From: Hoeflea sp. | GTDB taxonomy: Bacteria > Pseudomonadota > Alphaproteobacteria > Rhizobiales > Rhizobiaceae | Reading direction: 5' to 3' | DNA: 64,000 bases | NCBI GenBank assembly: GCA_965249925.1 | Contig: OZ252260.1 | Location: forward strand, 1,852,449 to 1,916,448 | Shown: in pieces, positions 28,947 through 50,743 of the stretch | Layout of the letters: the number at the start of each line of letters is the position of its first letter | Position numbering within the stretch: position 1 is the stretch's first letter | Notes under the pieces: model-generated | The model's database searches: none | What the model saw: only the letters and a program-made list of their open reading frames with translations | What the model was told of the DNA's origin: nothing | Position numbers and translations under genes: made by a program

Positions 28947-29021
28947 GCGGGCGTAGCTCAGGGGTAGAGCACAACCTTGCCAAGGTTGGGGTCGTGAGTT
29001 CGAATCTCATCGCCCGCTCCA
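28947..29021 (+). tRNA. tRNA-Gly (GCC)
   Basis: GCGGGCG acceptor stem, CAACC-TTGCCAA-GGTTG anticodon arm, GTTCGAA T-loop, encoded CCA end. Confidence 0.98.
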
Positions 29022-39326: not shown

Positions 39327-39752
39327 ATGACAGACAAAGACGATGTGCTGAAGGCGTCTGAGGCCTTTTACGCGGCTCTCAATCAGATGCTTGCCGGTGA
39401 CGCTGGTGCGTTACCTGGTCTGTGGGTACAGAGCCCAGAGGCCACGACAATGCATCCAATCGGCAGCCGGGAGGTAGGTTGGGATGATATCAAGGCGTCT
39501 TTTGAACGCGTGGCACGCTCAAGTGCGGGCGGACACGTTGAAATGACTGAGCGTCTCGTCCGGGTACACGGGGACGTGGCTTATGAGGTTGGGGTGGAAT
39601 TGGCCCAGTTCTCGGTCGCCGGCACGCCGCTCCACGTAAACTCGCGCGTTACGAACATCTATTATCGTGTCGACGGTCAGTGGAAGATTGTGCACCATCA
39701 CGGTGACAAGTCGCCCGGAATCGCAGAAGCACTGGCAAAAGCAGATGGCTAG
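39327..39752 (+). CDS. SnoaL/NTF2-like (DUF4440) protein
   Basis: FYAALN, HPIG...GWDDI..SF, GDVAY, RVTNIY...GQWKIVHHH. Confidence 0.85.
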   Translation: MTDKDDVLKASEAFYAALNQMLAGDAGALPGLWVQSPEATTMHPIGSREVGWDDIKASFERVARSSAGGHVEMTERLVRVHGDVAYEVGVELAQFSVAGTPLHVNSRVTNIYYRVDGQWKIVHHHGDKSPGIAEALAKADG

Positions 39753-40342
39753 TCGTCGATGAACGGGATCTACCAAAGCCGTCCTTGGGGCGGTTTTCGA
39801 AGCGTCCGATTACCTTAGCGAAAAAGGCTGGTCGTGATCCTTTGTGCAGCATAGCGCTGCTTAAGCGCAGCCTCGGGGTCCGCGATGCGCCGCAGTATCT
39901 CGCGGGTCTTGCGCTGTGCTTCGACAATGGACACAAGTCCCTATGCTTGTGCAGTGGTGAACTCGCTTGCCGGCAATCGAAAACTAAGCGTTGCAGCGAC
40001 AGGGCCGCGAAACTCAAGTGGAGCACTATGTTGCTTGTATGAACGCAACAAACCTAGACCTTGGTGTTCGCTGAATTCTATTGAAAGCCAAGACGATTGC
40101 GGCCCATTGTATCTACCGGCTGCTGTCCGCAACTGAATTCCGGCATAGACCTGGGATTCGCGAGTCTCCACAACCAGCAATGGCCGCTATTCTAACAAGC
40201 TATGGGCGACGGGCGTGTTGTAGATATTCCGGCGAACAGCACGGCAGCGTCCGTCGGTTCGTCCGCGCTATGCATCTTCGTCGTCAGTGTCCGGTTTCTT
40301 CTACGGATTGACCGGTGACCGTTCGAGGTCCGGGATAACACA

Positions 40343-40358
40343 ATCCCCAATTGGGGAT
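40343..40358. promoter_or_regulatory. Perfect 16-bp palindrome upstream of the vWA gene
   Basis: ATCCCCAATTGGGGAT. Confidence 0.6.
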
Positions 40359-40492
40359 ATCCCATCCTACGCCTCACGGCTAGTGAGTATTCAGTACAAC
40401 ACTGAGTGCCGTGGTGCCTGTCAACAGAACTCTGTATCCGGTATATGATTGACGGTTATTGATGGTGGAAATATTGCCAAGGAACATATTTT

Positions 40493-42403
40493 ATGCATTT
40501 TTCAAAGACCGTCGCTTTAGCCTTCGCAGTGATGTTCAAGGCAGCGGCATTCATCGCATCGAGCAGCGTCGCCGCGGCAGCGGATGAAGGCAATAAACTC
40601 CTGATCATCTACGATTCCTCCAACTCGATGTGGGGAGAACTGTCGGATGGGGCAAGGAAGTATGAAGCCGGTCGCGAGGCACTTTCGACACTTCTCGACA
40701 GCGATCTTTCAGGTCGGAAAATCGGATTGCGCGCCTACGGCCACAGGCGCGCCAAGGATTGTCGCGACTCTGAACTCGTTGTGTCCTTTGGCGACCGATC
40801 CACGACGACGGATCGTATCGGTACAGCCGTGTCCGGCATCGTTCCAAAAGGCCAAACACCGATAACCTACAGCCTTCAGGAAGGACTGAAGGATATGGAC
40901 GGTGTCGAGGGAGACATTCTGCTGATCACCGACGGTCTGGAGACCTGCGACGCGGACCCGTGCGCCCTGACAGCGCAGTGGCGCGATTCCGATGTCGACA
41001 TTCGTGTGCATGTCGTCGGTGTTGGACTTTCGGAAAAGGAACGCATAGCCATCGGCTGTATCGCGGATAACACAGGCGGAAGTTACTTCGATGCCTCCTC
41101 AGCGGCAGGTTTTGTGACCGCGCTTGATGAAGCCGTTGAAACTGTTGCGCAGCAGCCGGCGCCATCGCCGAAGGATCAACTGACCGAGTTCGAAATCCGG
41201 ATGATCGGGCGCGATCCGCAGGGGCGCGAATATCGTATCGGCGGTGTCCTCAAAGGCGATGGAGAAGACGATCGCCAGGTAGACAGTGGTGGGCGCACAA
41301 CAGTGAAGCAGCCCGGAAGCTACGTTCTTAAAGTCGGCCCGGTTCTGGAAGACGGCAGTATCTTTCAGCCGGTCGAGCGCGAGTTTTCAGTCTCGCCAGA
41401 CGCGGCGCTGACCGAGGTGGTGGTGCCCGTCATGCGCCCGGCAGTCGTCTCGGCAACATTCAGCGAAGCCGGTCAACCCCATCCGGGCGACGTGATTCGC
41501 GTGTTCTCAGACGGAGCGGAACTCTTTACCTTCCTGCCCGGTCCGATGGACCAAAGGCGCGAAGTTTTCATGCGGCCCGGCACCTATGAATTCCGTTCGT
41601 CTCCTAACGCCGACAACAGGCTGGCGGTGACCGAGACGGTCGACACGGCAAACGGGACAGAAATACTCTTTGAGCTCAGCACAACTTTTGAAGTGCGTAT
41701 CCAATTCGAACTCGCCGATGGGCAGATCTTCAAGCGGAACTCGGAACTGTGGCGGGATGGTGAGCTTCAGTATGAAGTGCAGTGGCGAGATGGTGCCCGC
41801 ATAAAATCAGGCACCTATGAACTGTACTCAGACGATGTCCTGCTGCCTGTGACGGTGGAGAGCCTTGAGCTCTCGCCGGATGAAAAGGAAGTCACCGTTC
41901 CCGTCGAGGCAGGGTTTATTCAGGTCACCTATGCCGACACACCCGAGCACTATCTCTCGGAACCGAACCGCGCATTCTTGAGCCCGGGCGGAAGCAACGC
42001 CCGTGAGCTCGTCAAACCGGGCGAGGTGATCACGGTCAAGCCGGGCATATACGAAATCGCGCCATGGGATAAGGCCGGTTACTTCGATGATCTGCAGCCC
42101 GTTGAAGTCATGAAGGGACAAACCGCAAGGATTGAGATTGCGCCCTTGCCGCTCGGCACGCTCATTGTCGGATATGCCGAAGACGGCGAATATTCCACGT
42201 CCCCCGACCGGGCGTTTGCCAAGGCGCTTGACGGCCAGCCGCTGAAGAAGGGTTTTATGCGCCCGGGAAAGCCGCTCAAAGTCGTGCCCGGAACGTATCT
42301 GGTCACGCCGAAAAAGGGGATCGACATTGAGCCCCGGCAGGTCGAAGTGCTTGCCGGGGAAACAACTCAGGTCATTTTGCGCCCCGTTGAAACCAATAAT
42401 TGA
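40493..42403 (+). CDS. Exported vWA-domain protein with C-terminal beta-sandwich repeats
   Basis: Signal peptide; MIDAS motifs YDSSNSM, GQTP, ITDG; five (P/S)GxY repeats. Confidence 0.88.
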   Translation: MHFSKTVALAFAVMFKAAAFIASSSVAAAADEGNKLLIIYDSSNSMWGELSDGARKYEAGREALSTLLDSDLSGRKIGLRAYGHRRAKDCRDSELVVSFGDRSTTTDRIGTAVSGIVPKGQTPITYSLQEGLKDMDGVEGDILLITDGLETCDADPCALTAQWRDSDVDIRVHVVGVGLSEKERIAIGCIADNTGGSYFDASSAAGFVTALDEAVETVAQQPAPSPKDQLTEFEIRMIGRDPQGREYRIGGVLKGDGEDDRQVDSGGRTTVKQPGSYVLKVGPVLEDGSIFQPVEREFSVSPDAALTEVVVPVMRPAVVSATFSEAGQPHPGDVIRVFSDGAELFTFLPGPMDQRREVFMRPGTYEFRSSPNADNRLAVTETVDTANGTEILFELSTTFEVRIQFELADGQIFKRNSELWRDGELQYEVQWRDGARIKSGTYELYSDDVLLPVTVESLELSPDEKEVTVPVEAGFIQVTYADTPEHYLSEPNRAFLSPGGSNARELVKPGEVITVKPGIYEIAPWDKAGYFDDLQPVEVMKGQTARIEIAPLPLGTLIVGYAEDGEYSTSPDRAFAKALDGQPLKKGFMRPGKPLKVVPGTYLVTPKKGIDIEPRQVEVLAGETTQVILRPVETNN

Positions 42404-42412
42404 GAGGAGATA

Positions 42413-43021
42413 TTGGTGTTCTCACGTATATTGCTTTTTACATTTTCCATTGCTGCCATGGTTTCGAGCGGCCCGGTTTCAGCTGAAACCAAGTTTCATC
42501 CGCTGGAGAGACTATGCATCACCTATGAACTGACCGGACAGGTTATGACCGGGACGAAGACGCGATGCCATCGAGCCTTCGGTCTGGAGTGGTTCGAGAT
42601 CGAACGCACCCAGGTTGGCAAGGGAGCTTTCGCCCAAAAGCAGAACAATCACAGAATCGGTTTGGCGGAACGGACCTATACGATCAACCTCGATGACAAC
42701 ACCGGTTCGATGATCGTCAACCCCCGGTTCGAACAGGTTAAAAAAACCATGCAGAGGCATGGTGACGATCCGATGAAGATGGGCCTGATGCTTCTTCAGG
42801 GTCTTGGCCTGGCGCCGACCGGTGAAACCCGGACCGTCGCTGGCAAGACATGCCAGTACTATAAATCAAGCCAGGGGTCCGAGGCATGCGTGACGCAGGA
42901 GGACGGACTGGTGCTCTTTCTCAGCGTGTTCGGCTCAGTTCAGACGGCAACGGACGTCTCCATTGGCGATGACGGCGGCGATGAAAACTATTCGCTGTTT
43001 GAAAGGGCGCAGATGCGATAG
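42413..43021 (+). CDS. Exported hypothetical protein (DUF4412-like)
   Basis: Signal peptide ending VSA|E; TGETRTVAGKTCQYY motif; GAGG RBS, 9 bp after the vWA stop. Confidence 0.7.
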   Translation: MVFSRILLFTFSIAAMVSSGPVSAETKFHPLERLCITYELTGQVMTGTKTRCHRAFGLEWFEIERTQVGKGAFAQKQNNHRIGLAERTYTINLDDNTGSMIVNPRFEQVKKTMQRHGDDPMKMGLMLLQGLGLAPTGETRTVAGKTCQYYKSSQGSEACVTQEDGLVLFLSVFGSVQTATDVSIGDDGGDENYSLFERAQMR

Positions 43022-43176
43022 TTCCGGCCAGCCAGGCGAATACAGGATCCGCACGATAGCCGTTGGCTTGCACCTGTCGGGCTGAACCTGAAACAGCCCA
43101 CAGGCAGGCTTGCCAGCCCCTGCCCACAGCGCGCGACAACCGCAAATTGTGCTTTTCCGTATAAGTGCCGATACAG

Positions 43177-43190
43177 TCCCCAATTGGGAG
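43177..43190. promoter_or_regulatory. Second copy of the CCCAATTGGG palindrome
   Basis: TCCCCAATTGGGAG shares 12 consecutive nt with 40344-40355. Confidence 0.55.
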
Positions 43191-43588
43191 TATTCGTAAA
43201 ACCGTTCCTTTATTACAGCCCGGTTGGGGGTTTGCCGGTCTGTTTACCGGGGTCGGAGGAGATTCTTTATCGAGACGTGGCGAACGCCATCTAAGCGGAC
43301 GGTTCGCAGACTGTTTTCAACCAAAAGTATTTTTGAAATCGGGGGATTCAGACATTGAATAGGACACGAAACTCCATGGTTTTCGCAACGGCTGCCCTCG
43401 GGGGCTGGCTCGCCAGGACGTATTCTGTGTTGGTCCATGGCGCAGTTCCTGGACCGGCCCCGCAAAGCTCGTTTGCCGGAAACGTCGTATATCATGGGCA
43501 ACAGAAGCCATCCTCTACCCGCATATGGGGTCATTTCAATAACCAGAAAAGAAATGCCGGAAATCTGATCTGTGCTTGGGGGGCATCG

Positions 43589-45532
43589 ATGCGAAGTCTG
43601 CGAAACCTGTGGCTCGTCCTGGTTGTTTGTTTCGTAGCCCCGTTTGTCGGATTATCGACGGCAGGTGCCCAGGTCCCGGCATATGAATTACGGCTGGCCG
43701 AAGCGCGCGGGGCATTAAAGAGAGCCTGCGAGAAGTACGACCGGGACAGCGCGGCGCTTACGGAAATCCAAGAAAACCTTGTGTCGGCAAGGTCTCAGAT
43801 CGTAGCCATTCGTGCAAAGATCAACGAAACCGAAATGTCCCACTACGAGGGTTTGGTGGCGTTGGGTCAACGGTCGGATCTTTCCGGCTCCGAGATACTG
43901 GAACACCGTCAGAGTCTAAATTTCTTCTTCGGCACCGTCATGTCGAGCCTCCGCGACGAGTTGGCCTACTCAGTCAGTTGGGAGCAGAGCACGTTGCGAC
44001 GGATTTACGATGAAAGTGCGCGCAGGCATGAGAAAGCGCGCCTCGCGAAGCAAAAGGCCCTGGATCTTCTGAACGATATTGAAAAAAGGCGGAAGCCCCC
44101 TCATACCAGCGTCCGGGCGCCGACGCCTCCGCTCACTCCGCAGGAAGAGGCGAAACTGAACGAACTCGTCGACCGTCTGCTCGACGAGATTGACGATATG
44201 TTGGCCGCGCAGGTGCCCGGGTCGCCGGATTATGTAGATCCGGACGATCTTGATAGGATCGCTTCCGGCCTCAAAAACGATCTCGAGCGGGGCAACAGGG
44301 CGATTCAGGCCGCGGATGAATTCATCCAGCACGATCCCGCCAACCCGCCGCCCGGCGGCGGAAACTTCGACAGCACTGCGGCGACCGGTACGGACGAAGA
44401 AGCGGAAGTCGGCGAAAGAGAACCGTTCAAGCGCCCCCGCCCCGATCCGCAAGGCACCAGGTTCCCGGAAGAAGAGAATGAATATGATCCATTTGAGCGA
44501 GCGGAGCCGAACCCGGCGGTAACAGTGGAATTCGATGTAAACCGCTTCAATCTTCCCAACTCGTACTTCTCGACCGTTAATGCGACGACCGGCGATCCCA
44601 ACATGGTGCCGCTGGGGCCGTCAAGCGTCACCGGTTTCGGCGGCCGGGTTGGTGTTATCATTCCCCCGTTCTGGAGTGACGGTGCGCCGCAACCTTCGCT
44701 TCCGGTCATTGAGACCCAGCCGAACGACGTGTCGGCCTTCATGCAGACCGACGTCGTCTCGATCACCGATGGTCAGCTCCTTTATGTCGGCTACAACCAC
44801 TATAGTGGCGATGCCACCAGCCAATACGTCCAGCCGGCCGGTGTCCAGCAAGTTGTGACCAGCGTTGGTGGCACTGGCACGCCCTTCGGTCTCAACGATC
44901 TGACCACGTTTAACACCGAAATTGAAAGCAACGGCGTCGAATTCGGCACCCGGTTGACGACGAACCTGCTGAGTGGCGAGCACGCCGGTGTCGGGGCATT
45001 TTTCGGCCTGCACGGAGAATACAATCGTAGAACCCTGGATGTCGATTACAACACGACCGACGGCACGATGAGCTACAACAGTTATCTCGACATCGTCGAG
45101 AAGACAGGCGTCATCAGGCCGACCTTTGGCCTTAGCGGCAGCTATTCGCCAGACTGGGCGGATCACTTTGAATTCGGCGCCAGATTTGAAATCGGCCCAT
45201 CGGTTTACTTCAACCGTGTGAACTATTCCGATTGCGGCAGTACAGACCCGACCGGGGGAGCCTGCAATGGCGGCTTTTTCCGGTCGAGCGCGAGTGACAG
45301 TTCCGTCGATTGGGAACTGTTCGCAATGCTCACGGCCTTTGCCATAGTCAACATAAATGATAATTCAGCTTTCAAGCTTTTCGGCTCGGTTCAGACCGAA
45401 CATGTGAACGGATTTCAGGTGCCCAACACGATACCGGGCAGCCCCGCGGGGACCTGGAACGGCAAGCCCCTTTATTATGGCAAGACGACAGCCAGCTATT
45501 CGGGCGGCATCAGTTGGATTCATGAGTTTTGA
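43589..45532 (+). CDS. Putative outer-membrane beta-barrel protein with an N-terminal coiled-coil/acidic region
   Basis: Signal peptide from ATG 43589; long amphipathic helices; Pro/acidic linker; C-terminal ~330 aa of alternating strands ending SGGISWIHEF. Confidence 0.7.
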   Translation: MRSLRNLWLVLVVCFVAPFVGLSTAGAQVPAYELRLAEARGALKRACEKYDRDSAALTEIQENLVSARSQIVAIRAKINETEMSHYEGLVALGQRSDLSGSEILEHRQSLNFFFGTVMSSLRDELAYSVSWEQSTLRRIYDESARRHEKARLAKQKALDLLNDIEKRRKPPHTSVRAPTPPLTPQEEAKLNELVDRLLDEIDDMLAAQVPGSPDYVDPDDLDRIASGLKNDLERGNRAIQAADEFIQHDPANPPPGGGNFDSTAATGTDEEAEVGEREPFKRPRPDPQGTRFPEEENEYDPFERAEPNPAVTVEFDVNRFNLPNSYFSTVNATTGDPNMVPLGPSSVTGFGGRVGVIIPPFWSDGAPQPSLPVIETQPNDVSAFMQTDVVSITDGQLLYVGYNHYSGDATSQYVQPAGVQQVVTSVGGTGTPFGLNDLTTFNTEIESNGVEFGTRLTTNLLSGEHAGVGAFFGLHGEYNRRTLDVDYNTTDGTMSYNSYLDIVEKTGVIRPTFGLSGSYSPDWADHFEFGARFEIGPSVYFNRVNYSDCGSTDPTGGACNGGFFRSSASDSSVDWELFAMLTAFAIVNINDNSAFKLFGSVQTEHVNGFQVPNTIPGSPAGTWNGKPLYYGKTTASYSGGISWIHEF

Positions 45533-45629
45533 GGGTTACGCTTTCTTTGTATGACACGGCGGGCCAGGTGTGTTTCGGATCACATCCGGCTTGCTGCGCT
45601 TGAAGCAAACATCCGGTCCGATTTTTTTA

Positions 45630-47375
45630 ATGACCGATCTCACCAAACGAAATGGCGATGATCGTGCCGCCATCAGCGAGGCGGAACTCGTCCAACGGCT
45701 TTACGAAGCGGTCGCGGACAATTCCCTGTGGCCCGAAATGATTTCGGAAGTCATGGAGCACATCGAGTCGACGCCTGCCGACGGAGGAGACCGGGCAAAC
45801 GAGCAATTCGAGGGTCTGGTGCGGCATTTCGAACGTGCGATGCGTCTTAGCGAGAACATCATCTCGCTCCAGGAACGCAACGCAACGATTGAGGGTGTTC
45901 TCGACAGCCTTTCTTTCGGCATAAGCGTGTACGACCGCAAAGGTCGGCAACTCTATGCCAATGCCGCAGCTATCGAACCCGGTGCCTTCGATCGGCGCAT
46001 TGTGCCGATGGCACAGCAAGTCGCCAGGGCCTCGCGCCTGGACACCTCACTACCCACGCTCACACGTTTCTCGGATACGCCGACCGACGTTGCTTTCATA
46101 CCCGCTGCGTGTCTGAAGAAGGTACTCCTGCCGGCAAATGCGGCGATGATTGTCGTATCTATGCCGGCCATTCCGGAACACACACTGGATCATATCAGAC
46201 GCAGTCACTACCTGACAGATACGGAGGGACAGCTCCTCGGTGCACTGTATCGGCTTAAGAATCTGCGCAAGGCTGGCGATTCGATTGGCATCACATATGA
46301 AACCGCGAGGACATATATCAAACGGATCTACGCGAAAACGGGCGTGAACAGCCAGTCGGCCTTGATGGGCCTGATGCAACAAAGCCCGATGTCCCTTATC
46401 CAGCATGTGGAAATGATAAAACCGAGGGAAAACCCGGTTCGTCATGACCTGTTGCTCCCGGACGGACGCAATCTTGAATACTTCGCGCTTGGTTCCCGCG
46501 AGGCCTCACCGGTGCTACATTTCGATGCGCTGACCGGTGTCGCGGTGGATCTGCTCGGAGCCGCGGAGATCTACCGCCCGGTTCTTGAAGAGCTGAATCT
46601 CCAGATAATCGTCCCCTGCCGACCCGGAACGTTCCGGAGCGATTTCAAGAAGATGGGAGGGCTGAGCGAGTTTACACCCGACCTGCTGTACTTGATGGAA
46701 CGACTCGGTCTGCAGCGGGCGTCGCTTCTGTCGCAGGCGTTCGGATCGTGCTCGGCACTGGCTTTTGCGGCAACAGCGCCGGAGCGTGTTGAACGTGTTG
46801 TACTATGCGCCCCCAGCTATCCCCGTTACGAGCCACCCGATTGGCGCAAGATGGACTTGTTCTACATCATCAGCGGCGTTATCGGTCGCAGGGCGCCTAC
46901 GCTCCTGAAAGCCATTGTCCCGTTTCTCATGCGATCGGTGATGCAGAACACGAAAAAATACCTGGAACGGCACATTGCCCGCTCGATCTGTCCCGCCGAT
47001 ATCGAAGTCCTTGGCAGCCCGACACTGCAAAAACGAATTCCGGAAATGCTTGCCGCGCGCACTGTGCTGGGCACCGACGGTCTGGTACAGGAGAATTTCC
47101 TCAATACCCACGGATGGGACTTCGACCCTGCTGAAATCGAGGCGCCGGTGCATATTCTGCAAGGTGAACTCGACAACGTCTCACACCCTGAAGGAGGGCG
47201 GAAGCTCGCCAGCGCGCTAAAGAAAGCGCACTATCATTCATTCCCGGACCTGGGTCAGTACCTGATTTTCTCACAATGGCCATGGATATTCGAGGTATGT
47301 GCCGGCGCGAACGCCGACGAACTTGCAGAAATGGCCAGACAGACTGTCGTTTCGCTGCCGCCGGGGAAAGCTTGA
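45630..47375 (+). CDS. PAS-like + LuxR HTH + alpha/beta-hydrolase-fold regulator
   Basis: VLDSLSFGISVYD...LYAN (PAS); LTDTE...GITYETARTYIKRIYAKTGVNSQSAL (LuxR HTH); LPDGRNLEY..G hydrolase start. Confidence 0.85.
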   Translation: MTDLTKRNGDDRAAISEAELVQRLYEAVADNSLWPEMISEVMEHIESTPADGGDRANEQFEGLVRHFERAMRLSENIISLQERNATIEGVLDSLSFGISVYDRKGRQLYANAAAIEPGAFDRRIVPMAQQVARASRLDTSLPTLTRFSDTPTDVAFIPAACLKKVLLPANAAMIVVSMPAIPEHTLDHIRRSHYLTDTEGQLLGALYRLKNLRKAGDSIGITYETARTYIKRIYAKTGVNSQSALMGLMQQSPMSLIQHVEMIKPRENPVRHDLLLPDGRNLEYFALGSREASPVLHFDALTGVAVDLLGAAEIYRPVLEELNLQIIVPCRPGTFRSDFKKMGGLSEFTPDLLYLMERLGLQRASLLSQAFGSCSALAFAATAPERVERVVLCAPSYPRYEPPDWRKMDLFYIISGVIGRRAPTLLKAIVPFLMRSVMQNTKKYLERHIARSICPADIEVLGSPTLQKRIPEMLAARTVLGTDGLVQENFLNTHGWDFDPAEIEAPVHILQGELDNVSHPEGGRKLASALKKAHYHSFPDLGQYLIFSQWPWIFEVCAGANADELAEMARQTVVSLPPGKA

Positions 47376-47456
47376 TCGATGAGCGGGTTTCACGGGCTCC
47401 GGACGCCAAATGGCGAATAATGCAATTCTCGTTCCAACAAGACTGAGAGGGGTGTC

Positions 47457-49049
47457 CTATTCAGGCATTCCTGCCAGCCTCATATCATTGAGCCATCGAT
47501 CCTGCGTGTTTGTGTCTGTCCACTGCTTGCCTACAAATTCTGCTTCCACCGCAAGCGTTCGATTTGGGCGCTTCTTTAGATAGACTTTCATCGCTTCTTT
47601 GGCATCTTCAAACCTGTTGAGACAAGAATAAATGGCGGCCAGCATCGTCTGAGAGTCAGGGTGGGGAGATGCCATGCTGAGCATGGCTTCCAAGCCTTTG
47701 TCACACTCGTTGTTCTGCCAATATGCCCAACCTAACTGCCACAGCAGAAAATCACCATGCAGCGGGTCCACCGCCTTCGCCTCGAGCAGAGCTGAAATCG
47801 CTTGGTCCACTTCGCCGATATTAAGAAGCGGAATGGACGTCGCGATGAGAACCATTGAGTCGGATGGGTTCAATTGAGCAGCTCTTTGAAAGTGTAGCAG
47901 GGCCTCCGCATGATCCCGGCGCGTCGTGAGGACCCGAGCCAGAGCATAGTGCGACATGTAATTTTCGGGTGAGATGGCCAGCGCCTTTTGGGCAAGTTCG
48001 GTGGCCTCCTCCAAGGCATCGTTGGGTGGTTGGTCTGTCCATTTGTGAAATGCCCCGACATTGAGCATCAGAGACTTTCCGATGTATCCCCACGGAGACG
48101 CCGGGTCTTCCGTGATGGAGATCTCCTCAAGAGCAAGTGCCTTTTGCCAGTTCTCCCTGGTAAGAACACGCATCATTTGTCGTGCTTGCAGGCTGCGCAG
48201 GAGTGAATTGACGTCCTGTTTCGTTCGCTTTGTTGGAATGTGCGTCAGAACGGACCCGCCGACTCTGGATGCAACGTGGCTGACGATTTGATCTTGCATC
48301 GCGAACAGGTCGTCAATTGTTCGATCCAACTTCTCCGAAAGCAGATGGGTTCCCGAGCTGGAATCGATCAACTGAACGGTCACGCGCAGCCGCTCTCCAT
48401 CGATTTGCTGGCTGCCTTCAATGATGTAATCCGCACCGAGGATTTCTCCGATCTGCCGGACATCGGTTGGCGCACCGCGAAACTGAAAACTTGAGTTCCT
48501 CGCAATGACCTTGAATTGAGGGAATCGCGCCAGTTCAGTGATGAGGCCTTCACTGAGAGCGTCGCTGAGGTAACCCTTGTGGTTGGCGTCACTCAGATCA
48601 TCCAACGGAAGTACGGCGACGACAAACGGTTTGCTTATGTGAGGCGGGCGCTGAATGCTGACATATCCGACAACCGTTGCAATAAGCACGAATACAGCCA
48701 GGCCAGCAGCCAGCACATATCTTCGCGTAGAACCGGTCACCTTGTCAGGCGCCGACAGACGATAACCGACACGCGGCACCGTTTCGACAATTCGCTTGTC
48801 GGTATCTCCCAATACTTTTCTGATGTCGGCAACACATTGGGCCAGATTGTCTTCGCTGACGTGATCCTGTGCCCAAACCGTCTCAATCAATTCCTGCTTC
48901 GGAAAAGTCTCTCCGATCCTGGAGGCAAGCGCCAAAAGAACATCCATCGACTTGTAACGCAATTCGGCCTGCCGACCGTTGCGATCTTTCAACCGGCGTC
49001 CGGAGGTATCCAAGATCATGGAACCCAATGAAATTTCAGAGGATTTCAA
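47457..49049 (-). CDS. CadC/ToxR-like membrane regulator: wHTH + TM + TolB-like + TPR
   Basis: ELIETVW..VSEDNL..CVADIRKVLGD..VETVPRVGYRL; TM YVLAAGLAVFVLIATVVGYV; VAVLPL..LS, VIARNSSFQF; TPRs ending AGMPE. Confidence 0.88.
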   Translation of the reverse strand: MKSSEISLGSMILDTSGRRLKDRNGRQAELRYKSMDVLLALASRIGETFPKQELIETVWAQDHVSEDNLAQCVADIRKVLGDTDKRIVETVPRVGYRLSAPDKVTGSTRRYVLAAGLAVFVLIATVVGYVSIQRPPHISKPFVVAVLPLDDLSDANHKGYLSDALSEGLITELARFPQFKVIARNSSFQFRGAPTDVRQIGEILGADYIIEGSQQIDGERLRVTVQLIDSSSGTHLLSEKLDRTIDDLFAMQDQIVSHVASRVGGSVLTHIPTKRTKQDVNSLLRSLQARQMMRVLTRENWQKALALEEISITEDPASPWGYIGKSLMLNVGAFHKWTDQPPNDALEEATELAQKALAISPENYMSHYALARVLTTRRDHAEALLHFQRAAQLNPSDSMVLIATSIPLLNIGEVDQAISALLEAKAVDPLHGDFLLWQLGWAYWQNNECDKGLEAMLSMASPHPDSQTMLAAIYSCLNRFEDAKEAMKVYLKKRPNRTLAVEAEFVGKQWTDTNTQDRWLNDMRLAGMPE

Positions 49050-49057
49050 AGAATTTC
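49033..49057. promoter_or_regulatory. Three ATTTC direct repeats at an exact 10-bp period
   Basis: ATTTC at 49033, 49043 and 49053, at the 5' end of the wHTH regulator. Confidence 0.5.
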
Positions 49058-49167
49058 GTTTGATGAGAACAGGTCCCTGTCCGTTTCCTGGATTTGCTGC
49101 AAATCACCGCGAGGTGAACACAGGACTTTGCCGCAACTGCGATCATTCTATCATGGAGTGCACAATT

Positions 49168-49740
49168 ATGGGCTCTTACAAACGATCAATCCGTCGAGCC
49201 GTACTGGCAATGACCACGATGGCCTTTCTACCCATGACATCCGTTGTTTCACAGGGAGGCGATTGCCATGATCAACTCACGTCAGGGATCGCTCCAGTTC
49301 ATCAATGGTATTTGACCAAAGCCCGTGAGTTTGAGCGTCACGCGGAACGCCTTGTGCATCTGCAAACCCAATCTCTTCTGCTGAGCTACGCCAATGAACA
49401 ATCATCCGACGGCACCCAAGGGGTCAACAGCCCGAGCGACACGCTGAAGCAGGCGATTTCGGATCAGGAGAGCCGCGTTCGATATACAGTCGAAGCGATG
49501 GCGCGCAACACATCGGCACATGAGGATTGGCATCTCCTCGTTGGTGAATTGGTCGGGGCGTATGGCGCCATGAGCGAGACGTCACAAGAGGTTGCCGAAT
49601 TGATTGACGTGGGTCATATCGACGACGCGAATGCCGTTCATCGCGCCAGGTCGATGGACCTCTACAACCAGATCGCGCGTACCACCGGCACTCTCGCGGC
49701 CAACATCGAAGACGTCATGTTTCGACGTGTTATCCCGTAG
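49168..49740 (+). CDS. Hypothetical exported all-helical protein (four-helix-bundle-like)
   Basis: GGAG RBS before ATG 49168; basic/hydrophobic N-terminus; amphipathic helices; divergent from the CadC-like gene. Confidence 0.55.
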   Translation: MGSYKRSIRRAVLAMTTMAFLPMTSVVSQGGDCHDQLTSGIAPVHQWYLTKAREFERHAERLVHLQTQSLLLSYANEQSSDGTQGVNSPSDTLKQAISDQESRVRYTVEAMARNTSAHEDWHLLVGELVGAYGAMSETSQEVAELIDVGHIDDANAVHRARSMDLYNQIARTTGTLAANIEDVMFRRVIP

Positions 49741-49799
49741 GACATTGTGGGCATTGTGAATGTCTCTCGTGAACGCTTTGAGGCGGCTTCTTCAGGCGC

Positions 49800-49875
49800 C
49801 TCAAGTCGCGAACGGATGATAGCCTTGCTACAATGACAAAAGGCTTCTTCCACGCGGACCAACAAACCCATGAGC
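49800..49875 (-). pseudogene. Fragment of a pyridoxamine 5'-phosphate oxidase-like (MSMEG_1061-type) gene
   Basis: LLVRVEEAFCHCSKAIIRSRL resembles the family motif VEEAFFHCxKxxIRSxLW; no surrounding gene. Confidence 0.55.
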
Positions 49876-49939
49876 CATTCAGCGAGGACTCAAGTCGTAG
49901 CGTTTGACTGTCGCAGGGTTTGTGAAATCGGAGGCAAAC

Positions 49940-50743
49940 ATGGATTGGGATGAAATGGCGCGCCCGTGGCTCGAAGCTGCGCCGGATTTAGAAGCTTCGT
50001 TTCGGGACATATTTGAATTGCTTTTTGCTGCGGCAAGGCTCGAGACCGGAGAAAATGTCCTTGATGTGGGGTGCGGTACCGGCCCCACGCTGTTGGTCGC
50101 GTCGGAGGCCGTCGGAGAGACGGGACGCGTGTTGGGCATTGACATTGCGCCGCCACTGATCGCGCGTGCAGCGGAGCGTGTACCGGACAATGTCGATTTG
50201 ATTGTTGGCGATGCAGGCTCTCATGCCTATGAGAGTGAAGCCTTCGACGTCATACTGGCGAACTTCGGGATCATGTTTTTTGAAGACAACGCCGCCGCGT
50301 TCCGGAACCTCCGAAACGCTGTGCGACCGGGTGGGCGTCTTGCCGCTACCGCCTGGGCAACACCCGATGTCAATCCGTGGTTCTCCATGCCGCGCCGGAT
50401 TATTGATGAGCGTATAGCAGACGTGCCAAGACCCGATCCGTTAGGACCGGGACCGATGCGCTTTGGCGATCCATCCATTCTGGAAGGCCATCTGGAGAAT
50501 TCGGGTTGGAAACCCGACATACGATCTGTTGATGTTCTTTTGCATCCGCCGGGCACCGCCGAAAGAGTGGCAGATCTACACATGAAGGTTACCGTTGGAA
50601 TGATGCTGAAAGGCGTCGACGTTGCCGACAGCGAACTTGAACGGATCAAGGAAACGGTCGCGGACGCCATCCGAGAGTTTGAAACCGACGGCTCTATTCG
50701 AGTCCCCGCTAAAATTCATATCGTTTCAGCTGTGGCGTGCTAG
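49940..50743 (+). CDS. Class I SAM-dependent methyltransferase
   Basis: VLDVGCGTG, VLGIDIA, GDA, FDVILANFGIMFF; GGAGG RBS. Confidence 0.92.
   Translation: MDWDEMARPWLEAAPDLEASFRDIFELLFAAARLETGENVLDVGCGTGPTLLVASEAVGETGRVLGIDIAPPLIARAAERVPDNVDLIVGDAGSHAYESEAFDVILANFGIMFFEDNAAAFRNLRNAVRPGGRLAATAWATPDVNPWFSMPRRIIDERIADVPRPDPLGPGPMRFGDPSILEGHLENSGWKPDIRSVDVLLHPPGTAERVADLHMKVTVGMMLKGVDVADSELERIKETVADAIREFETDGSIRVPAKIHIVSAVAC

Follow-up and report, generated by a model that had tools for sequence, protein, structure and literature searches.

We analysed a 64,000-nucleotide stretch of DNA from Hoeflea sp. (contig OZ252260.1; hereafter the window), and within it the segment 40343-49740, which holds six open reading frames, here called A to F. 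We propose, as a moderately probable reading, that D, a rare LuxR-type regulator, controls two neighbouring operons for exported envelope proteins, A-B and C-D, through a palindrome that precedes each of them and that recurs with the D family across many marine bacteria. The segment as a whole would comprise two independent regulatory units, unit 1 at 40343-47375 and unit 2 at 47457-49740, a division that we likewise favour with somewhat better than even confidence. An earlier note, made from the sequence alone, had assigned all six genes to a single surface sensing and adhesion module. The genes and both palindromes are indeed where that note had placed them: A, B and C, all on the + strand, each begin with a Sec-type signal sequence, as read from the translations, D is cytoplasmic, E spans the membrane and F is exported and divergently transcribed.

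A palindrome conserved with the D family

The 10-mer CCCAATTGGG occurs exactly at 40346 and 43179, with no other copy in the window, and both copies lie in non-coding DNA, one before A and one before C. The first belongs to operator 1 (40343-40358, no strand), a perfect 16-bp palindrome, ATCCCCAATTGGGGAT, situated 142 bp upstream of the start codon of A. The second belongs to operator 2 (43178-43189, no strand), which reads CCCCAATTGGGA, with one mismatch to the 12-mer core; it stands 171 bp upstream of TTG 43355 and 405 bp upstream of ATG 43589, two possible starts of C. The palindrome is thus found before both structural transcription units, as had been claimed. Across the genome as a whole, the 10-mer shows no enrichment, with 6 copies in its 7.8 Mb and about 9 expected from base composition, so that two neighbouring copies are by themselves weak evidence (P ~0.01 for 2 of the 6 within 2.8 kb).

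The palindrome gains its significance from the comparison across genomes, and on the strength of this conservation we consider that it is a real, conserved cis-element. An exact CCCAATTGGG is present between D and the next gene in three other loci (L062, L068 and L069). A site with at most one mismatch to CCCCAATTGGGG was found 7-83 bp past the D stop codon in 10 of the 14 other D-family loci, whose proteins are 35-73% identical, and the chance expectation for such a site is ~7e-4 per 300-bp interval. Three more of these loci carry variants altered only in the central four bases or in one arm, and no second match at this stringency was found elsewhere in the 14. When the conserved flanks are included, the consensus of the family becomes tGTCCCCAATTGGGGATAtc, which operator 1 fits. 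In 1.01 Mb, representing all the fetched loci, there was a single other match at the same stringency, and it had no flanks. We also looked for further regulon members in the window genome and in a Phaeobacter genome and obtained only flankless or intra-coding sites: in the former the flanks are present at the two window sites only, and in the latter the sole other exact copy lies, without flanks, inside an EamA gene. A literature search on the operator string CCCCAATTGGGG returned nothing relevant.

Down to 35% protein identity, the sequence of the CCCC/GGGG arms and of the ATA flanks does not vary, nor were compensatory changes seen, a pattern more in keeping with a site recognised by a protein than with an RNA hairpin; variation is concentrated in the central AATT. 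In the operons where D is followed by a vWA gene, the distance from the beginning of the site to the start codon is 70-85 nt. In addition, a -10-like CTAGt is found 35-38 nt past the operator start at window site 1 and in L068, L069 and L072; at window site 1 this element is CTAGTGAGT, at 35 nt. With this spacing, the centre of the operator would fall near -43 from the presumed transcription start. An operator centred near -43 is in the classical position of LuxR/TraR-type activators.

We have weighed these data against another explanation, in which the genes are mere neighbours in an acquired island and the palindrome is a hairpin (a weak terminator or a processing site) or a recombination scar at the 3' end of D. 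The region has a GC content of 53-58% compared with 60.9% for the genome, with a drop that starts at a tRNA-Gly gene; moreover, the variable AATT would be the loop of the hairpin, and a terminator scan lists site 1 as a stem-loop. However, the window copies are located upstream of A and C, not after D, and a promoter is in keeping with both the -10-like element and the constant spacing between the site and the start codon that follows. Together with the invariance of the arms and flanks without compensatory changes, this makes the explanation quite improbable. An Rfam scan of 39700-50000 gave no match. We keep to a protein-bound operator, and the recurrence of the site with the D family makes it likely that D binds it.

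D associates a probable LuxR-type helix-turn-helix with a hydrolase fold

D (45630-47375, + strand; alternative start 45570) encodes a cytoplasmic one-component regulator of 581 amino acids (aa), with no signal or transmembrane segment. Its N-terminus is a helical/PAS-like region; it is followed by a probable GerE/LuxR-type helix-turn-helix at residues 195-256 (nt 46212-46397) and by an alpha/beta-hydrolase fold at residues 272-560, which matches Abhydrolase_1 with 33.2 bits (cut-off 25.8). The GerE profile PF00196 is covered over its whole length, with 16.2 bits (cut-off 23.5), and its scores in D homologues are 32.3 bits (L074) and 22.1 bits. No Pfam match to an autoinducer-binding domain was obtained for D or its homologues, and a literature search for the LuxR-hydrolase architecture gave nothing relevant.

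The nucleophile elbow of D reads S-Q-A-F-G, the serine being replaced by Ala; the catalytic His is replaced by Gln and the Asp is retained. D thus does not have the Ser-Asp-His triad and GxSxG elbow of an active hydrolase, in line with the earlier description of D as a LuxR pseudo-hydrolase. The same two replacements are present in 19 of the 23 aligned homologues (at least 49% identity); of the remaining four, three carry Gly in place of the Ser and one is outside the alignment. Since both the nucleophile and the histidine are lost, the hydrolase fold of D is probably a ligand-binding sensor only. A search with a D-family profile gave a weak match to the RsbQ structure 1wom (E = 7e-5).

A distant branch of the family (L073-L080, 34-40% identical to D) keeps an AxSxG elbow and the catalytic His, with the operator still behind the gene. 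The family, as judged from its residues, appears to include both potentially active and dead hydrolase domains.

D could instead be a repressor, its operator overlapping the promoter and a signal releasing the protein, or an enzyme-regulator hybrid that hydrolyses its substrate via other residues. Should the true -35 element and the operator overlap, the position of the latter would be compatible with occlusion of the promoter, and the triad kept in the distant branch implies that catalysis is ancestral. Nevertheless, Ala and Gln occupy the catalytic positions in D and in most of its close homologues, and the operator position near -43 is classically that of an activator. We consider this alternative unlikely and retain the view of D as a ligand-responsive activator.

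The D family comprises ~50 protein clusters in 5.8 billion proteins. D was found in one of 60 related genomes, and a class-wide search gave no match in 400 other genomes sampled; the family is therefore rare. Its orthologues that are 58-73% identical have the same palindrome downstream, then a vWA operon or a C-family gene. Those 58-62% identical are found in three further assemblies, one of them a Phaeobacter isolate, and in three metagenome contigs (L067-L072). There, the gene behind D encodes a canonical vWA protein (PF00092; 458-463 aa), the N-terminal domain of which is 34-38% identical to that of A; in four of the loci the vWA gene is followed by that of an SH3_3 protein, and in three by genes for larger exported proteins. 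In L062/L063, the gene that follows D belongs to the C family. We also observed four tandem D paralogues (38-41% identical to D) beside a divergent Omp85/POTRA gene in the genome G003 (L059, 5915-14538).

A and B, a vWA protein and its predicted LolA-fold partner

A (40493-42403, + strand) encodes an exported protein of 636 aa with an N-terminal vWA domain carrying an intact metal-ion-dependent adhesion site (MIDAS), four conserved Cys and five repeats of ~80 residues. The MIDAS residues (D41-x-S43-x-S45, T122 and D147) are invariant in 29 relatives, in agreement with the earlier assignment. The four Cys are also invariant among the relatives, and five invariant Gly/Tyr pairs ~80 residues apart mark five PGxY beta-sandwich (beta-rich) repeats. 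We propose that these repeats are immunoglobulin-like and that A is periplasmic or secreted. A itself matches none of the vWA profiles PF00092, PF13519 and PF13768 at E <= 10; among its 29 relatives, VWA_2 is matched by 7, VWA_3 by 4 and VWA by 3, and A is 37% identical over residues 36-226 to a PF00092-positive vWA protein. A phmmer search of A against solved structures gave spurious nanobody matches only. The family has more than 120 full-length relatives in marine Proteobacteria. The sole full-length relative outside the genus among the 60 relatives (G059:C2:273535-275205, 35% identity) contains an in-frame TAA and may be a pseudogene.

The product of B (42413-43021, + strand) is exported and 202 aa long; it has four invariant Cys and a predicted half-barrel resembling those of LolA, LolB, RseB, VioE and LprG. 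An AlphaFold2 model built from a 19-sequence alignment reached a pLDDT of 89 and a pTM of 0.80. When this model was compared with the PDB by Foldseek, 46 matches were obtained at E <= 0.001 (best 1e-5, TM 0.4-0.55), including VioE, LolA, RseB, LprG and an ependymin-related protein. B is thus predicted to be LolA/RseB-like, an unclosed beta-barrel with an internal helical lid, a likeness at the level of the fold only. A LolA-type half-barrel usually holds acyl chains or other hydrophobic ligands. B and its 18 relatives matched no Pfam family and none in the LolA clan, and PF14371 (DUF4412) gave no match at E <= 1, so that the label DUF4412-like, previously given to B, has no support from any profile.

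The full-length A-B pair is present in 4 of the 60 related genomes, all of the same genus. In a set of 43 loci encoding A relatives, B adjoins A in 22, and a hybrid histidine kinase and a NarL/LuxR-type response regulator flank A-B in 17. Such kinase-regulator-A-B loci were found in Hoeflea, Henriciella, Hyphomonas, Robiginitomaculum, Parvularculaceae, Maricaulaceae, a Rhodobiaceae isolate and Gammaproteobacteria. No orthologue of the kinase or of the NarL-type regulator of this cassette was found in the window genome, which keeps only the vWA and LolA-fold genes. The four-gene cassette (hybrid kinase, divergent NarL/LuxR-type regulator, vWA and LolA-fold proteins; L017, L019-L021, L025, L027, L031-L033, L039, L042, L043, L046, L049 and L050) occurs widely among marine Alpha- and Gammaproteobacteria and, it appears, has not been described before.

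C, a presumed outer-membrane protein with a variable N-terminal half

C (43355-45532, + strand; best start ATG 43589) encodes a signal peptide, a helical/coiled-coil region of ~220 aa, an acidic Pro-rich linker and a C-terminal domain of ~330 aa. Its N-terminus is MRSLRNLWLVLVVCFVAPFVGLSTAGA, followed by Q, and its C-terminal end is GGISWIHEF; C thus has both a signal peptide and a C-terminal beta-signal ending in an aromatic residue, and a terminal Phe is found in five of the eight members of the family. The frame 43355-43588 encodes MNRTRNSMVFATAALGGWLA, which resembles the N-terminus of the relative P0122, MN(TSMN)ALAVATVALGGWLT. From this likeness, C may start at 43355 or 43376, with two hydrophobic N-terminal segments.

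The family is small. Six relatives were found among 1.84 billion representatives, a seventh match being an AtpA fragment; a word-indexed search of 5.8 billion proteins returned C itself only, and no C was detected among the 60 related genomes. The members share the C-terminal motifs LGPxDxDGFGG, QAPGTQQ, FGLNxxTTFxT and DCGSTDxTGGxCNGGFF and the terminal Phe. Their N-terminal halves differ: five members, C among them, have a coiled coil, P0122 has Pro/Asp/Ser-rich repeats, and the member from the genome G002 has an SLH domain.

C had been described as a coiled-coil beta-barrel protein. The helices stand: in an AlphaFold2 prediction made without alignment, they extend over residues 31-247 with a pLDDT of 55-90. 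Residues 249-647 have a pLDDT of ~20 and are unusable, and the barrel is indicated only indirectly, by the terminal Phe and, in relatives only, by sub-threshold matches to Autotransporter and OMP_b-brl. A profile search with the C-terminal domain against solved structures gave no match at E <= 10. On these sequence features C is presumed to be an outer-membrane beta-barrel.

The C relative of G002 (L046 5929-7899, Rhizobiaceae) has an N-terminal SLH domain, with 37.2 bits (cut-off 20.8); C itself has no SLH match. Proteins with both an SLH domain and a barrel, such as OmpM and SlpA, are typically those of Terrabacteria and are unusual for Alphaproteobacteria. Because SLH takes the place of the coiled coil in this member, the N-terminal stalk of C is probably periplasmic, and it is doubtful that the barrel exports a coiled-coil stalk, which the earlier note had offered as one of two roles for it.

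The C gene of the window also contains an insertion of ~34 codons (44675-44776, + strand), missing from all seven other members of the family. It encodes LPVIETQPNDVSAFMQTDVVSITDGQ and matches TIGR00962 (E = 7e-8), with 21 of 27 core residues identical to the ATP synthase alpha subunit of the same genome (LPVIETQ.NDVSAF..T.V.SITDGQ). The nucleotide identity with the genomic atpA (1607434-1607547) is ~74%, and the differences are mostly at third codon positions. To judge from this pattern, the insertion seems to be a piece of atpA that was captured long ago, in what would be a loop of the barrel.

Links among A, B, C and D in other genomes

Upstream of the C relative P0123 lies a D orthologue, 73% identical to D, and P0122 (L061) is followed by an A relative, 80% identical over 60 residues up to the contig end. 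In G002, the SLH-bearing member is located directly between the response regulator and A-B. Overall, three of the eight C-family loci (those of the window, L061 and G002) are beside A-type vWA genes and one is beside D. The earlier note had asked whether these genes are ever found together elsewhere; for A, B, C and D, they are. A reading in which only A-B is conserved, which came from the searches of the 60 relatives, was dropped after the contexts of the C and D families had been read.

The recurrence of the C-family and A-type neighbourhood under two different regulators suggests a shared task in the envelope, where A, B and C probably act together. That they form a physical complex is a tentative idea, which we hold to be rather improbable; a metal-dependent periplasmic scaffold on an outer-membrane anchor is one possibility, to which we give low confidence.

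Our proposal is the following. Ligand-gated D, as a dimer, would bind (TAT)CCCC-AATT-GGGG(ATA) and, at ~43 bp upstream of the presumed transcription start, would act as a class II activator, like LuxR or TraR. In most genomes, the operator just behind D would drive one adjacent operon for exported proteins. In the window genome, where the operator precedes both A-B and C-D, D would control the vWA/LolA-fold cassette, which is under a two-component system elsewhere, plus the stalked outer-membrane protein C; the operator before C-D would make D autoregulated. A would be a periplasmic or secreted vWA protein, B a periplasmic LolA-fold protein and C an outer-membrane protein with a variable, probably periplasmic stalk. 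Of all this, the layout of the genes, the conservation of the operator with D and the gene linkages are shown; the binding of D to the site, its activating role, its perception of a ligand and the interaction of A, B and C are what we infer from them.

Several observations weigh against this proposal. The palindrome is absent before all the A-B orthologues found elsewhere, and the tie between A-B and D is seen in the window genome alone. The three loci that link C and A may all be from one genus. The four tandem D paralogues of G003 have no CCCCAATTGGGG operator, and no obvious exported protein is encoded behind the operator in the distant D branch. Finally, the GerE score of D itself is under the threshold, and the barrel of C has no confident model behind it and no match among solved structures.

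E and F most likely form a separate unit

E (47457-49049, - strand) encodes a regulator of ToxR/CadC topology, with a Trans_reg_C winged helix (52.4 bits, residues 26-98), a single hydrophobic span, YVLAAGLAVFVLIATVVGYVSI, near residues 110-131, and periplasmic TPR repeats after it. E had been called CadC-like; this is true of the topology, but E is not a CadC orthologue, since the CadC model NF007540 is matched over residues 23-103 only, the DNA-binding part, with 62.7 bits (cut-off 400) and not over its full length. The window genome encodes at least seven E paralogues. F (49168-49740, + strand), divergent from E, encodes an exported protein of 190 aa with a signal sequence, for which no known family was matched.

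The sole other F gene that we found is in G002, beside an E gene whose product is 68% identical to E and on a different contig from the A-B genes of that genome. The intergenic DNA between E and F is 82% identical in the two genomes, whereas the F proteins are only 48% identical. This region contains three direct repeats, ATTTC(A/G), with exactly 10-bp spacing (49033-49058, no strand), which are candidate E sites. If E is read from TTG 49049, its first ten codons overlap the three perfectly phased repeats, which are kept in G002; because this intergenic DNA is conserved, the true start of E is likely ATG 49019. OmpR-type winged helices normally bind direct repeats. The arrangement is as expected for such a winged helix, and by this analogy E probably binds the three repeats and would control itself and F.

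Neither E nor F was found in the 43 A-type loci or in the 15 D-type loci, and the palindrome never accompanies E-F. From this distribution E-F is most likely a separate unit and not part of an A-B-C-D module. These data bear directly on the single signal-controlled surface apparatus of the earlier note, in which all six genes take part, the barrel exports the stalk, A serves as an adhesin and the palindrome is the target of both regulators. In its favour, the genes adjoin one another within one low-GC patch, and A, C and D are linked elsewhere. However, E and F recur as their own divergent pair in G002 without A, B, C, D or the palindrome; E has in its own intergenic region direct repeats of the normal target type of OmpR-type winged helices; and the SLH domain of a C-family member argues for a periplasmic N-terminus. 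In addition, there is no sign of a single apparatus on which the two regulators would integrate their cues. The regulators usually found with A-B are a hybrid histidine kinase and a NarL-type regulator. We regard a single apparatus of six genes as highly improbable and keep to the two units defined above.

Genomic setting

Judging by its relatives, the host is a Hoeflea-like member of the Rhizobiaceae, with a genome of 7.8 Mb and a mean GC content of 60.9%; the region studied here has 53-58% GC. The GC content drops from ~64% to 53-59% exactly at a tRNA-Gly gene (28947-29021) and remains low for ~30 kb (29000-58000), with the whole of the segment inside. This low-GC stretch may be a horizontally acquired island.

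Discussion

Each part of this system comes from a known superfamily: vWA, the LolA fold, the outer-membrane barrel, LuxR/GerE, the alpha/beta hydrolases and the ToxR-like regulators. According to profile libraries and literature searches, the architecture of D, its operator, the envelope regulon, the C family and the kinase-regulator-A-B cassette are undescribed.

D resembles the LuxR/GerE regulators (LuxR solos, CsgD, VpsT and those of the MalT type) in its probable GerE helix-turn-helix, in the proposed use of a palindrome of ~12-18 bp near -43 and in the presumed local control of envelope or matrix genes. Unlike them, it has no autoinducer-binding or receiver domain, and its helix-turn-helix is central, with a PAS-like region on the N-terminal side and a hydrolase fold on the C-terminal side. 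This fold brings D close to the hydrolase-fold receptors, plant D14/KAI2 and GID1 and RsbQ of Bacillus subtilis, in which it serves for signal perception, and the presence of both triad-bearing and triad-less members in the D family recalls D14 versus GID1. The likeness is at the level of the fold only, and in D, in contrast to these receptors, the fold is fused directly to a DNA-binding domain.

Two types of outer-membrane protein can be compared with C. OmpM/SlpA tethers consist of a signal peptide, a periplasmic region (SLH and/or coiled coil) and a C-terminal beta-barrel (PMC10628300, PMC9388160). The C family has the same domain order, with SLH in the G002 member, a long helical region in C and a presumed barrel; however, an SLH domain is lacking in C, OmpM gave no sequence match, and OmpM-type tethers are from Terrabacteria whereas the present host is an alphaproteobacterium. 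With type Va autotransporters, C shares a variable N-terminus and a conserved C-terminal domain of ~300 aa ending in Phe, and two relatives have sub-threshold matches to the Autotransporter HMM. Yet no member of the C family reaches the Pfam threshold, the double-Cys motif DCGSTDxTGGxCNGGFF is not an autotransporter feature, and the SLH-bearing relative argues against export.

A is similar to the periplasmic vWA proteins BatA/BatB and YfbK in being an exported vWA protein with an intact MIDAS, and some database sources name its family "Ca-activated chloride channel family". It differs from them by the absence of a membrane anchor, by its five PGxY repeats, by its fixed LolA-fold partner and by its usual coupling to a hybrid kinase and a NarL-type regulator. 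E shares with the ToxR/CadC/HilA regulators the OmpR-type winged helix, the single span and the periplasmic C-terminus, and has weak NCBIfam matches to HilA and CadC in the DNA-binding part; its periplasmic part is made of TPR repeats, not of the CadC sensor domain.

The D family is well defined, with an operator within about one mismatch in most loci and a tiny regulon, so that it could be tested with few constructs, including in tractable Phaeobacter strains. Dead-enzyme sensor regulators are well known in plants and poorly charted in bacteria. The D family might be an unrecognised class of receptors, in which the hydrolase fold, still catalytic in an older branch and inactive in the one that contains D, would sense an ester- or lactone-like molecule and gate the fused LuxR-type domain, as a single-protein counterpart of D14/KAI2; in marine bacteria it would switch on envelope proteins (vWA, a LolA-fold or SH3 partner and a stalked outer-membrane protein) forming a periplasm-spanning, metal-dependent complex. 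We put this forward as a speculative extension, to which we give a minor share of our confidence.

The locus also links three uncharacterised envelope families, namely the vWA and LolA-fold cassette, a near-orphan stalked outer-membrane protein and the vWA and SH3_3 operons. Moreover, it would represent a case of regulatory rewiring, in which one structural cassette answers to a two-component system in most taxa and apparently to D here.

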